Shown here: positions 61,511 through 63,104 of the stretch, in pieces
Position numbering within the stretch: position 1 is the first letter of the stretch
How the letters are laid out: every line of letters starts with the position of its first letter
Virus record (IMG/VR): IMGVR_UViG_3300042564_002458
Location: 56,922-120,921 of that record
Length of the DNA: 64,000 nt
Origin: a virus
Reading direction: 5' to 3' (one strand)
The notes under the pieces: generated by a model
Databases searched by the model: none
What the model was told of the DNA's origin: nothing
Seen by the model: only the letters and a program-made list of their open reading frames with translations
Program-made: the position numbers and the translations under genes

Positions 61511-61585
61511 CCATATTGAAGTACACTAAACAGGCAATTATTTCCTAACTCGCACTCGCGACGAGGTTAATGTACTTCAATATGG
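61511..61585 (-). ncRNA. handle-stem RNA cassette F
   Basis: CCATATTGAAGTACATTA/TAGTGTACTTCAATATGG 18-bp stem. Confidence 0.65.
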
Positions 61586-61593
61586 TGTAGGCT

Positions 61594-61790
61594 AAATCGT
61601 CCCCGACTCCCCTACTTGAGTTGTCAACCCTGTCCGTCTGATTATTCTCTTTGGGCGAGATCAGCAACACCCTACGATCTTTCCAGAACTCCGACATGGA
61701 GAACTGCGAGGTTATGATCGTAAGCACCCTTGACCATCTCGTGTAGTCAAATTACGCCCTATGATTAACGATTAGGGACATCGGGATTTT
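61594..61790 (-). ncRNA. structured ncRNA immediately 3' of tRNA-His
   Basis: TCCCGAT/GTCGGGG closing stem; hairpins CCCTA/TAGGG, TTGAC/GTCAA, TACGATC/GATCGTA. Confidence 0.55.
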
Positions 61791-61791
61791 G

Positions 61792-61867
61792 TGGGGTGAC
61801 TGATGGGACTCGAACCCACAACGACAGGAATCACAATCCTGGATTCTACCATTGAACTACAGCCACC
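61792..61867 (-). tRNA. tRNA-His(GTG)
   Basis: G-1:C73; loop TTGTGAT; CCA. Confidence 0.93.
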
Positions 61868-61868
61868 A

Positions 61869-62081
61869 TTGTCATTAGTTGTATTGTTTCGTTATAGACA
61901 ACAATAACCCTATTGTCGTTTGCTTTTATCGCCCAAACATTATACAAGGACACTGGCCAGTGTTGATCTTGATTTCGTTTGGCACAACTGTATATTCGAT
62001 GCCTGCAGGACAGAGCGAAAATCGCCAGTGCATTAATCTGGTGAACACAGATTTTTTCCAAAACAATACAACTAATAACAA
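61869..62081 (-). ncRNA. stem-closed RNA cassette G
   Basis: about 21-bp terminal stem including perfect ATTAGTTGTATTGTTT/AAACAATACAACTAAT. Confidence 0.6.
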
Positions 62082-62159
62082 TCATCATTATTGAACACAT
62101 TGCGGCTTGTGGCCTTACTACCAGAATACTCGGTTCGGCAATGCGCTCAATAATGATGA
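62082..62159 (-). ncRNA. handle-stem RNA cassette E
   Basis: TCATCATTATTGAGCGCATTGC/GCAATGTGTTCAATAATGATGA 22-bp stem with G-U pairs. Confidence 0.65.
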
Positions 62160-62209
62160 CTCACGGAGTGCCTCACGGCAGGCCGATACTTCCCAGTATC
62201 ACTGAGTCA
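62157..62209 (-). ncRNA. small three-way-junction RNA
   Basis: TGACTCA/TGAGTCA closing GATACT/AGTATC and TGCC-GTGA-GGCA hairpins. Confidence 0.45.
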
Positions 62210-62233
62210 ACGTACTGCTATTGTGTTCATGAA

Positions 62234-62473
62234 CACAATATTTTAGTACACTAGGATGTCTGCGAATCCCCCAATCGGCTGGTTACCACGTTGTCGTCCA
62301 ACGACTGTTCGCTTACCACATTACATGCTAGACTACCCGACGCGACTACTGTTTCATCCACGTTTGAGAAGTTTCCATCTTTCATGATATCACAGTGCAC
62401 CCATCTCCGGCGAGAAAGTCTAATGCCTGTATATCCTATCGGATCTAGTAACCTAATGTACTAAAATATTATG
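62234..62473 (-). ncRNA. handle-stem RNA cassette D
   Basis: CATAATATTTTAGTACATTAGG/CCTAGTGTACTAAAATATTGTG 22-bp stem. Confidence 0.7.
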
Positions 62474-62581
62474 ACACAATATTTTTATGCCTTCTGCACC
62501 GACCTGTCGAACCCGTATTTCCTCAATACGGTAGAAGAGGTTGCTAGTCTTCTAAAGGGCAAAGACATAAAAATATTATGT
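62474..62581 (-). ncRNA. handle-stem RNA cassette C
   Basis: ACATAATATTTTTATGTCTT/AAGGCATAAAAATATTGTGT; inner TAGAAGA/TCTTCTA and CCGTATT/AATACGG hairpins. Confidence 0.7.
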
Positions 62582-62582
62582 A

Positions 62583-62676
62583 ACACAATATTGAAACACA
62601 CTATCCTGGACTTTGGAACAGTGGCTGTACTCCTTCAAGAGTATTCTACTGTCTGAAATGTATTTCAATATTGCGT
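62583..62676 (-). ncRNA. handle-stem RNA cassette B
   Basis: ACGCAATATTGAAATACAT/GTGTGTTTCAATATTGTGT. Confidence 0.7.
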
Positions 62677-62693
62677 CTAATTTTTAAAGAACG
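62664..62693. repeat. 30-bp direct repeat, copy 1 (boxA-like motif plus handle start)
   Basis: identical to 63025-63054; reads CGTTCTTTAAAAATTAGACGCAATATTGAA on -. Confidence 0.9.
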
Positions 62694-62712
62694 ATTTACT
62701 TACTGAACTTCT

Positions 62713-62741
62713 ATTATAACTGAATACTGATTTATCGTCAA
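62713..62741 (-). promoter_or_regulatory. sigma70-like promoter of the ncRNA array
   Basis: TTGACG-ATAAATCAGTATTCAGT-TATAAT. Confidence 0.85.
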
Positions 62742-62759
62742 GTCTTTTTTTTATATTCT

Positions 62760-63037
62760 ACACAATATTGAAACATACTTACTAAGGGAGGACAGAAATT
62801 CTAGCTCGGCTCGTTTTCCAAGATATCGAAATCATTCTCATTACTCTCGCCTGTTATGTCCGCCATATACCGATCCAACCCATACGGAATCCGTGGCTGG
62901 CGTTATAGTCCATGTTTCGTATGAGCAACATCTGCGACCAGACATGGGAATCATACTAACCTAACGGAAGCGATAACCTTAGTGTACTTACACAGGCATG
63001 ACCCATGTACTCACAAAAATATGCTTCAATATTGCGT
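62760..63037 (-). ncRNA. handle-stem RNA cassette A
   Basis: ACGCAATATTGAAGCATAT/GTATGTTTCAATATTGTGT; inner ACTAAGG/CCTTAGT. Confidence 0.7.
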
Positions 63038-63054
63038 CTAATTTTTAAAGAACG
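63025..63054. repeat. 30-bp direct repeat, copy 2
   Basis: identical to 62664-62693. Confidence 0.9.
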
Positions 63055-63075
63055 TTTACTACTTACTATACAACT

Positions 63076-63104
63076 ATTATAACTGATTACTGATTTATCG
63101 TCAA
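63076..63104 (-). promoter_or_regulatory. sigma70-like promoter of the ncRNA array
   Basis: TTGACG-ATAAATCAGTAATCAGT-TATAAT; near-identical to 62713. Confidence 0.85.

Follow-up and report, generated by a model that had tools for sequence, protein, structure and literature searches.

The minus strand of a 64,000-nt phage DNA window (the whole stretch analysed: IMG/VR record IMGVR_UViG_3300042564_002458, positions 56,922 to 120,921) carries, at window positions 61511–63104 and within a tRNA gene region, two predicted transcription units that would yield a series of small folded RNAs. Six of these RNAs, units A to F, are each closed by a terminal stem of 19–22 bp, seen by folding on both strands. 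This stem, which we call the handle, is one of a large family confined to phages. Small stable RNAs were recognised in phage tRNA clusters some 50 years ago (T4 species 1 and 2), and the family shows that such RNAs form a large, modular set in which one helix encloses at least ~180 unrelated interiors in hundreds of uncultured T4-like phages. We consider it about an even bet (probability roughly 0.5) that the helix is a processing-and-protection signal releasing a swappable library of small RNAs. The parts of the array, in order along the minus strand, are as follows.

63076–63104, minus strand: promoter P1 (TTGACG, 17-nt spacer, TATAAT; 11 of 12 matches), predicted to drive A
63038–63075, minus strand: transcript leader before A (blastn: 13 related loci at ~86–100% identity; repeat D3)
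62760–63037, minus strand: unit A, 21-bp handle (3 G·U), 236-nt interior
62713–62741, minus strand: promoter P2 (11 of 12 matches), predicted to drive B onwards
62583–62676, minus strand: unit B, 20-bp handle, 54-nt interior
62474–62581, minus strand: unit C, 20-bp variant handle, 68-nt interior
62234–62473, minus strand: unit D, 22-bp variant handle, 196-nt interior
62209–62233, minus strand: short palindromic hairpin directly after D, read from the sequence
62157–62209, minus strand: H, 53-nt RNA of two hairpins, closed by a stem of 7 bp that is not of the handle type
62082–62159, minus strand: unit E, 22-bp stem, handle-related but divergent, 34-nt interior
61869–62081, minus strand: G, conserved 213-nt RNA with its own 23-bp stem, unrelated to the handle; ends 2 nt before tRNA-His
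61792–61866, minus strand: tRNA-His (GUG)
61583–61790, minus strand: I, conserved ~200-nt RNA whose 3′ hairpin ends in ACCA, where handle F starts
61511–61585, minus strand: unit F, 19-bp consensus-type handle, 37-nt interior

The array is structured at the RNA level, on the minus strand, rather than being a symmetric repeat of the DNA. A stem finder and folding recovered the six units with the stems, coordinates and 5′ arms given in the initial annotation, including its observation that apparent mismatches are G·U pairs on one strand only: the minus-strand handles of A–F contain 111 Watson–Crick, 13 G·U and 0 A·C among 124 pairs. For all nine folded units, the fold of the minus strand is more stable than that of the plus strand (A, −86.3 versus −63.2 kcal/mol; D, −76.0 versus −54.2 kcal/mol). 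The cargoes had been described as GC-rich and mutually unrelated, and this holds for the interiors of A–F, which span 34–236 nt, have a GC content of 0.44–0.53 against 0.20–0.36 in the arms and 0.338 in the genome, and show no similarity to one another at blastn-short E ≤ 0.01. B, C and D are contiguous, with spacers of 0–1 nt. All 13 tRNAs of the window lie on the minus strand, with tRNA-His inside the array.

The proposed kinship of the six handles applies in graded form. Those of A, B and F are consensus-type, C and D are variants and E is related but divergent; the six units show three handle variants. In C, D and E the basal AUAUU/AAUAU block is retained, with changes compensated elsewhere, and in C the GAAR block is replaced and the opposite arm carries compensating changes. 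G and H, which had been listed as further units, are indeed stem-closed (23 bp and 7 bp), but their stems are unrelated to the shared handle. A promoter leader precedes A and B, and other units precede C to E; F alone in the window begins on ACCA, that of the I RNA. The claim that the stretch holds no credible open reading frame needs qualifying, since ORFs of 49–84 aa exist, but none reaches the Pfam cut-off. The longest (61846–62100) overlaps tRNA-His and the conserved G RNA, and a 60-aa ORF (61545–61727) lies mostly inside the conserved I RNA. An extended 36-nt leader–trailer pairing around A, 75% complementary, is weak by hand reading and was not relied on. Elsewhere in the window, the segment 59908–60288 is GC-rich, lacks the handle and folds no better than shuffled sequence (z 0.41).

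The earlier proposal of a polycistronic array of structured RNAs with a shared, covarying handle is supported, and the array has two promoter matches, 11 of 12 positions each, in front of A and of B onwards. P1 is part of a 52-nt direct repeat (D2) common to P2, and promoter and leader together form a repeat of ~100 nt. Two interiors were found in RNA libraries. A 197-nt contig covers 62819–63007 inside A with 7 differences, and contigs of 191 nt (62251–62441) and 178 nt (62252–62429) lie wholly inside D with 0 differences; the D contigs come from two runs of one RNA study and the A contig from another study. These are assembled contigs that carry no strand or termini, and RNA libraries can hold DNA. 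They stop short of the handle arms, none over the units has a back-joined form, and the protein genes of 56–64 kb are covered by no RNA contig; at a depth of ~3, contigs are uninformative on ends, strand or absence, and these observations carry no weight as evidence. RNA contigs matching the tRNA region show 1–6 differences in 34–66 nt and probably derive from other organisms.

A sister contig from a close relative, among such relatives units come and go, documents the cargo turnover that the initial annotation had suggested looking for. At the position of B it has identical arms around an unrelated 81-nt interior; D is missing, with the breakpoint in the repeated 10-nt end of its 3′ arm and no target-site duplication seen there; and at least five more units are present. 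The interiors that are retained are highly similar: A is identical over 234/234 positions, G over 171/171 and C at 98.5%. Flanking coding DNA is only 92–93% identical, and the identity of the A and G interiors against this background indicates that payloads are under selection. Compensatory changes in G, I and tRNA-like interiors point the same way. Homologues of G have 70–76% identity, with compensatory changes in 15 of 52 predicted pairs (a set of 5 sequences that includes two near-identical pairs); those of I have 77–81% identity (L297, L006, L172, L284), with compensatory changes in 8 of 54 predicted pairs; and those of H have 83–85% identity (L164, L303). The F interior recurs in L006, L071 and L172, whereas the B and D interiors have no homologue in ~440 loci. 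With its own promoters, six units, three handle variants, a swapped and a missing unit in the sister and hints of expression, the window is a good test case.

Across IMG/VR, the family comprises 487 units in 221 loci; of these units, 475 have a tRNA gene within 3 kb, and units always lie on the strand of the tRNA genes. The consensus helix of 18–20 bp pairs 5′ ACCAUAUUGAARYACAUU with AGUGYRUUCAAUAUGGU, and its 18-bp sequence is near-invariant across very different phages. Chance is excluded as its source because the same stem finder returned 1 unit in 95 tRNA-free control loci (824 kb). On the tRNA-sense strand of 475 units, a strand-symmetric finder counted 841 G·U against 120 A·C pairs. A first 14-mer scan gave mostly chance hits and was discarded.

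Because units were collected by the stem finder and a two-arm pattern, pairing percentages at pattern-forced positions are partly circular. At pattern-free positions of 244 pattern hits, canonical pairing reaches 99% at position 9 (86% in shuffles) and 82% at position 15 (44% in shuffles), and it ends beyond −4 and +17. Position 13 is a U·G pair in 208 of the 244 units. An alignment of 107 units, five from the window and 102 of 105 cluster representatives (105 of the 182 clusters had a qualifying member of 60–125 nt), pairs in 97.5% of 2030 cells against 89.2% in shuffles, with window C and L280, which are misaligned in the arms, counted among the unpaired cells. Left out were L001:3647-3750 (the sister copy of window C), L001:3422-3528 (in which arms of two adjacent units pair with each other) and L024:8349-8409 (whose locus is a chance hit). 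Both-sided changes occur at 13 of 19 pairs, in 143 cells compared with 28.0 in shuffles, a value reached by 0 of 500 shuffles; slid controls pair in 29–47% of cells. At position 8, G·U is the commonest pair (49/107).

The helix is tied to tRNA arrays and to CCA ends. Handles of the wider family often begin at the CCA end of the tRNA upstream. Of 389 unique units, 109 start on the ACCA of such a tRNA, as called by ARAGORN, and 38 have their end 3 nt inside the tRNA that follows. Pairing at the three CCA positions is found in 98, 91 and 84% of the units; shuffles give 89, 77 and 76%. Nearly all tRNAs in family loci encode CCA (2569/2643), and 146 of those are directly followed by a handle; for these tRNAs to work, the RNA would have to be cut within the helix, at the CCA or close to it.

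Interiors fall into ~182 clusters and can be as short as 17 nt. They share no conserved nucleotides, and many are conserved across contigs. About 9% (35/389) are T-arm-like; the T-arm abuts the 3′ arm, so that the handle occupies the place of an acceptor stem. An apparent blast cluster of 109 interiors was an artefact of nested units spanning two neighbours.

Catalogue searches agreed with the earlier statements that the array is not CRISPR and cannot be assigned to a known RNA family. Against Rfam 15, the stretch 61511–63104 matches only tRNA-His, both at the gathering score and at E ≤ 10; in a search of E, the sole Rfam match was a sub-threshold hairpin, MIR397 (32.5 versus 55 bits). In 14 unit-rich loci, 150 of the 152 matches are listed, and these are to tRNA, permuted or alpha tmRNA and one group I intron, locus-wide. 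A CRISPR array was rejected since the repeats are inverted pairs enclosing a variable part, and no cas-like protein was recognised in the 25 most frequent clusters of neighbouring proteins. Hammerhead, twister, pistol, hatchet and HDV-like cores were likewise set aside, as the interiors show neither conserved nucleotides nor an Rfam match. By blastn, the stretch matches phage records only at tRNA-His, unit F and a tRNA-like unit have no match in cultured phages at E ≤ 1, and a 69-nt minimal unit hits 4 phage records, each with a single chance piece. In T4, Melnitz-3 and HTVC008M, handle patterns are no more frequent than in controls. Full-text literature searches gave no description of the stem family, although candidate RNA lists held only in supplements may include it.

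We propose that each of the units A–F is an independent RNA module with a near-constant 19–22-bp clamp and a free interior. In a long precursor, the helix would mark cut sites for an endonuclease acting on double-stranded RNA, most likely RNase III of the host or an enzyme equivalent in function; where a tRNA follows, RNase P would probably make the cut. The helix would then shield both ends from exonucleases, and the interior would accumulate as a stable small RNA. Recombination between shared arms would let phages exchange, gain and lose interiors as cassettes. The interiors themselves, some of them tRNA look-alikes, would be the payload and probably bind or distract host or phage proteins. 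If the helix is such a general signal, it explains how many small RNAs are expressed from tRNA operons and offers both a natural scaffold for stable RNA expression and a catalogue of candidate RNA decoys against host defences.

The helices of the array, 19–23 bp long (including that of G), are about as long as RNase III substrates require and provide about two turns of double-stranded RNA flanking an RNA, as in an RNase III stalk. Known stalks include the leader–trailer helices around 16S and 23S rRNA and the sites of the phage T7 early region; there, too, a long helix of ~20 bp flanks a stable RNA in a polycistronic precursor and spans the mature end of a neighbour. No such stalk is known to be sequence-invariant across hundreds of unrelated inserts or to begin on a tRNA CCA end. 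Some observations fit this proposal less well. A cut after the CCA lies only 4 bp from the helix base, which is not the usual RNase III geometry. Escherichia coli RNase III is tolerant of sequence, and the near-invariance of the helix goes beyond what such an enzyme is known to require. It may reflect a specific reader, or recombination that keeps the sequence homogeneous. The 121-kb fragment containing the window, from a lake phage, is rated 34% complete, so the lack of an RNase III gene in it weighs little.

A bolder reading, in our estimate clearly less likely than not, makes the clamp the universal adaptor of an RNA-cassette platform: a single reader would excise or load hundreds of unrelated structured RNAs, phages would trade them by arm recombination, and the payloads would be decoys or inhibitors directed against host tRNA-targeting defences and RNA-processing enzymes. 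Such a platform would be an integron-like library, but of non-coding RNAs, with tRNA mimics and aptamer-like folds as payloads.

Alternatively, and in our estimate rather unlikely, the handle could be the docking site of one dedicated protein, encoded by the host or elsewhere in the phage, with the interior exchangeable and cutting secondary. Proteins of this kind exist: Ro60 binds the terminal stem of Y RNAs, and Cas6 stays on its repeat hairpin. The near-invariance of the 18-bp sequence across phages, the conservation of wobble pairs at fixed positions and the retention of the basal block in the window's variants C, D and E all suit such a protein. YrlA offers a parallel (Rfam RF02553; PMC4201824): its 5′ and 3′ ends pair into a constant terminal stem, the variable part is modular and some members are tRNA mimics, as some of our interiors are tRNA-like. 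Both YrlA and our family sit amid RNA repair and tRNA functions (rtcB), and in YrlA T and D arms flank a capped acceptor-like stem, whereas the family T-arm directly abuts the handle. No YrlA match appears in the stretch or among the matches listed for the 14 loci, and no TROVE/Ro60 match in the 121-kb fragment, a weak negative given its completeness.

The neighbouring genes also argue against a dedicated protein encoded beside the units. With tblastn, ORFs of the window's tRNA region identified a metallophosphoesterase in 68 and a PF04308 RNase H-like protein in 48 of 328 loci, and all-against-all clustering placed them in 63 and 43 of 215 loci (the metallophosphoesterase falls below the Pfam cut-off, 19.9 versus 21.5 bits, but has a strong PHROG match). 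Both were rejected as partners by the reverse test: loci anchored on the metallophosphoesterase contain units in 14 of 78 cases and tRNAs in 63 of 78, and those anchored on the PF04308 protein in 3 of 20 and 17 of 20, respectively. The metallophosphoesterase thus tracks tRNA arrays, not units. No protein cluster out of 40 is enriched in unit-bearing loci relative to 51 tRNA loci lacking units, nor is any frequent where units occur but rare where they do not; the top neighbour occurs in 63 of 215 unit-bearing against 46 of 51 unit-free tRNA loci. Family loci are short (median ~9 kb), so a distant gene would be missed. That no neighbouring gene tracks the units agrees with the processing-and-protection proposal, in which the reader could be an enzyme of the host or have its gene in another part of the phage genome. 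A 233-aa protein flanking the array has no relative in phage records.

It is unlikely that the cassettes are mostly selfish or neutral filler of tRNA operons, their arms recombining, the hairpin insulating tRNAs and most interiors lacking function. As many as 144 of the 182 interior clusters are singletons, and the coming and going of units between close relatives and the lack of homologues for B and D would be expected of filler. The interiors conserved across contigs with compensatory changes, and those of A and G, which are more conserved than the flanking coding DNA, speak against it; so do the promoter of A itself and the presence of GC-rich interiors in a 34% GC genome.

The initial annotation had raised circularisation by the nearby RtcB. 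In this reading, a nuclease leaving 2′,3′-cyclic phosphate and 5′-OH ends would cut both handle strands, and the ligase would close the RNA. An RtcB gene (PHROG 1075, E 1.9e-144) does lie on the strand of the array, ~2.2 kb further downstream, followed closely by the metallophosphoesterase, and a terminal helix that holds the ends together should offer good ligation geometry. An RtcB homologue is found, however, in only 2 of the 328 related loci searched, which speaks against it as a partner, and the phosphoesterase fails the reverse test given above. We regard this route as very improbable.

Poorest of all are the prospects of the inverted repeats acting as DNA, either as MITE termini or as attC-like single-strand hairpin sites for a recombinase: unrelated cargo does sit between inverted termini, relatives differ by the precise presence or absence of one unit, genes for HNH and GIY-YIG endonucleases occur in the region and a folded single DNA strand would likewise favour G·T, but double-stranded repeats would not show the strand asymmetry (13:0 in the window, 841:120 in the family), the units share the strand of the tRNAs and lie behind promoters, several handle variants with compensating changes coexist in one genome, no target-site duplication was seen and no transposase or integrase was recognised among the 25 commonest neighbour clusters, and two interiors are found in RNA libraries.

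Within the reading we prefer, in which the helix releases and protects small RNAs, three further phage systems offer comparison. Theta (HDV-like) ribozymes (PMC10879173) lie directly after phage tRNAs, with a proposed role in tRNA 3′ trailer processing; they are self-cleaving, and 4.5% of their tRNAs encode CCA, compared with the 2569 of 2643 here. Unlike the theta fold, the constant part of the family is a plain helix without a conserved core. T4 rnaC and rnaD (species 1 and 2) are likewise small non-coding RNAs whose genes share the strand of the surrounding phage tRNA genes and are transcribed together with them, and rnaC has a T-arm-like hairpin near its 3′ end, as do the T-arm-like interiors of the family; they differ in being two fixed genes rather than a cassette family, with neither a 19-bp terminal helix nor the handle sequence. 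PeSL (promoter-early stem-loop) cassettes of T4-type phages are repeated promoter-and-stem modules that reportedly mediate gene shuffling in hyperplastic regions. PeSLs flank protein genes and their stem is a local terminator hairpin, whereas the stem here encloses an RNA insert; in both, repeated promoter-plus-stem modules flank swappable inserts, as the ~100-nt promoter and leader repeat does in the window.

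Inverted repeats in the window enclose six small RNA modules (units A–F) at exactly the coordinates proposed in the initial annotation, each closed by a shared terminal helix, the handle, whose 5′ and 3′ arms surround an interior.

Units A–F, with the RNAs interleaved with them (G, H and I, which lack the shared handle)
62760–63037, minus, unit A
62583–62676, minus, unit B
62474–62581, minus, unit C
62234–62473, minus, unit D
62157–62209, minus, interleaved RNA H
62082–62159, minus, unit E
61869–62081, minus, interleaved RNA G
61792–61866, minus, tRNA-His
61583–61790, minus, interleaved RNA I
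61511–61585, minus, unit F

Measured base by base, the helices are 19–22 bp long, and B, C and D are contiguous, as had been described. The proposed RNA-strand asymmetry is borne out by 13 G·U versus 0 A·C among 124 handle pairs on the minus strand, where all non-Watson–Crick pairs are G·U, and folding both strands favoured the minus strand for every unit. The interiors (34–236 nt) have a GC content of 0.44–0.53 versus 0.20–0.36 for the arms and show no relation to one another, consistent with the earlier description of GC-rich, mutually unrelated cargo. That description assigned no known RNA family, and an Rfam search of the stretch returned tRNA-His only, even at E ≤ 10; a MIR397 match on E (32.5 bits, well below the 55-bit threshold) is a generic hairpin match. 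The 49–84-aa open reading frames of the stretch have no family match above cut-off. Sigma-70-type promoter matches (11/12 each) head A (63104–63076, minus) and B (62741–62713, minus), and both sit in a direct repeat of ~100 nt comprising promoter and leader, the leader of which is also present in 13 other loci. No terminator-like site was found in the stretch. This one array holds three coexisting handle variants, with their own promoters.

Family members were collected with a two-arm pattern in two IMG/VR scans of at least 120 stretches each. A stem finder that scores G·U and A·C alike was run on 328 loci (2.88 Mb) and identified 487 units in 221 of them, 475 of these units having a tRNA gene no more than 3 kb away; 95 tRNA-free control loci (824 kb) yielded a single unit. 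With the strand set by the nearest tRNA, wobble pairs across the family comprise 841 G·U versus 120 A·C. The median unique unit (n = 389) is 97 nt long, and the family consensus pairs 5′ ACCAUAUUGAARYACAUU with 3′ AGUGYRUUCAAUAUGGU. Among 244 pattern hits, pairing is confined to positions −3 to +16, and position 13 is U·G in 208. At positions left free by the pattern, pairing is canonical in 99% of hits versus 86% of shuffles (position 9) and in 82% versus 44% (position 15, where all four Watson–Crick types are present). Formal covariation analysis of 107 units found 97.5% of 2030 cells paired versus 89.2% in shuffles and 29–47% in slid controls, with both-sided change at 13 of 19 pairs and in 143 cells; shuffles gave 28.0 such cells, and none of 500 attained the observed number. 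Because units were chosen for having a stem, this formal count is less clean as evidence than the strand asymmetry or the result at free positions. The array is a real, RNA-level feature belonging to a large family, and its architecture is established. The two-arm pattern occurs in only 12 stretches across 185,579 prokaryotic species at one genome each, mostly in metagenome bins. Within the sensitivity of blastn, none of 50,697 deposited phage records yielded a unit, and none was found in T4, Melnitz-3 or HTVC008M. A search of the main text of articles found no description of the stem family. In two related contigs, a circularly permuted tmRNA gene lies near stem-clamped units (L006 8496–8776, minus; L091 6252–6700, plus).

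The units are closely linked to tRNA ends. Of the unique units, 109/389 start on the terminal ACCA of an ARAGORN-called tRNA and 38/389 finish three bases inside the next tRNA. Among the tRNAs upstream, Glu (31), Leu (25), Lys (17) and Gln (14) predominate; these counts are not independent, because related arrays have gene order in common. CCA is encoded by 2569 of the 2643 tRNAs in these loci, 146 of which are directly followed by a handle, and the three pairs at the CCA positions covary and are retained at a higher rate than in shuffles. Since the helix extends across the mature 3′ terminus of the preceding RNA, a working tRNA needs a cut inside the helix or at its base, and it is chiefly this arrangement that favours a processing role. 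Where a tRNA lies downstream, RNase P would make the 3′ end of the unit; the consensus base preceding the downstream tRNA is U. F alone among the units of the window is placed on a CCA end; a promoter leader precedes A and B, and C, D and E come after other units, which suggests that cassettes are also expressed for their own sake.

We infer, with a probability of about 0.5, that the handle is a processing-and-protection clamp. A helix of this length that spans the cut would suit a double-strand-specific endonuclease, whereas sequence invariance, wobble pairs at set positions and a cut that would fall just 4 bp from the base of the helix count against a plain RNase III site. Among the neighbouring genes of unit-bearing loci, none is specifically linked to the handle, which points to its reader being either an enzyme of the host or the product of a phage gene located farther away; recognition by a dedicated binding protein seems unlikely.

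Clustering by blast sorts the interiors of the family into ~182 groups, of which 144 are singletons, and many groups are conserved in 4–13 contigs; the largest, of 109 interiors, was discarded as an artefact of nested units. A T-loop-like motif lies within the last 30 nt of 35/389 interiors, where a hand calculation gives ~1 expected by chance. The 13 interiors of one cluster can be aligned as a tRNA-like RNA with its T-arm adjoining the 3′ arm, so that the handle stands in place of an acceptor stem. Interiors A, C, E and G were found again in a sister contig (L001), whose flanking protein is 94% identical to that of the window, as were F, H, G and I in more distant contigs; the B and D interiors did not recur in ~440 loci. 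Cargo turnover among relatives, a check suggested at the outset, is seen at B, where the sister contig carries an unrelated 81-nt interior versus 54 nt in the window, with promoter, leader and both arms unchanged and breakpoints at the inner arm ends. The sister contig also lacks D, with a breakpoint in the 10-nt end common to the C and D 3′ arms, carries tRNA-Tyr at the site of tRNA-His and holds at least five further units. Its A and G interiors are identical to those of the window (234/234 and 171/171), compared with 92–93% identity in flanking coding DNA. We infer functions for these payloads, and it is rather improbable that the units are mostly neutral spacer cassettes.

G and I are separate conserved RNAs, G with its own 23-bp stem and I with a 3′ hairpin followed by ACCA, on which handle F begins. 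Homologues of both occur in other contigs at 70–81% identity, with compensatory changes at 15/52 predicted pairs in G and 8/54 in I (five sequences each, some nearly identical). They constitute two further structured RNA families of ~200 nt each outside Rfam, and the minihelix and ACCA of I resemble a tRNA 3′ end.

Small parts of the stretch are present in three metatranscriptome runs. In a comparison over 56000–64000, contigs of 191 nt and 178 nt lie wholly inside D with 0 differences (two runs of one study), and a 197-nt contig from another study lies inside A with 7 differences. As assembled contigs, they document that these sequences occur in RNA libraries but give no information on strand, termini or abundance, and such libraries can contain contaminating DNA.

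RNase III stalks and PeSL cassettes may be viewed as functional analogies to the clamped units. T4 rnaC and rnaD occupy a similar genomic setting but both lack the clamp; rnaC has a T-arm, as do some family interiors. YrlA (PMC4201824) has terminal-stem logic and tRNA mimicry in common with the units but differs in Rfam model match, partner gene and orientation. Theta ribozymes (PMC10879173) likewise follow phage tRNAs but differ in fold and in the CCA status of the tRNA.

The window is the final 64 kb of a 120,921-base IMG/VR phage fragment with a completeness rating of 34%; its GC content is 33.8%, and the DNA runs containing the stretch come from lake-water metagenomes. The minus strand carries all of its 13 tRNA genes, which lie within 48361–61866.

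Selected protein-coding genes of the window
63485–63865, plus (opposite to RtcB and the metallophosphoesterase), HNH endonuclease
58019–59272, minus, RtcB
57397–58008, minus, metallophosphoesterase
46705–47196, minus, PF04308 RNase H-like protein
45067–45390, minus, GIY-YIG homing-endonuclease-like protein
35185–37239, minus, 684-aa protein

RtcB had been put forward as a partner that circularises the units, but no neighbouring gene specifically tracks them and such circularisation is very unlikely. Given the strand asymmetry, a DNA-level element is scarcely credible. The metallophosphoesterase and the PF04308 protein regularly accompany tRNA arrays in this phage lineage and are candidate tRNA-end metabolism proteins; tRNAs occur in 63/78 metallophosphoesterase-anchored and 17/20 PF04308-anchored loci, with or without stem-clamped units. 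The 684-aa protein is 40.5% identical to a protein of Methylophilales phage Melnitz and 37.6% to one of Pelagibacter phage HTVC008M, counterparts annotated as adenylate/guanylate cyclase. Neighbouring open reading frames in related loci, judged by eye from sequence, are presumably T4-like (RNase H-like, UvsX-like and dCMP-deaminase-like).

Three inverted pairs of 19–21 bp, reported by the stem finder before the window at genome bases ~43400–45600, carry a different repeated motif; two are spaced 240 nt apart, and the set resembles a tandem repeat that may be coding rather than a group of handle units. A GC-rich, ORF-poor interval of 380 nt between tRNA genes (59908–60288, minus) has one T-arm-like hairpin, lacks the handle and folds no better than shuffles (z 0.41). 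Positions 60286–60357 (minus) have an Rfam tRNA match of 42.3 bits absent from the ARAGORN calls, and at the corresponding place the sister contig has tRNA-Asp after tRNA-Glu. Directly upstream of rtcB, ARAGORN calls a 101-nt tRNA-Ile(UAU) (59223–59323, minus), and the same long tRNA is present in the sister contig (L001 7925–8025). The HNH and GIY-YIG homing-endonuclease-like genes lie on both sides of the tRNA region, a placement like that of T4 segB, and could drive turnover of the region.
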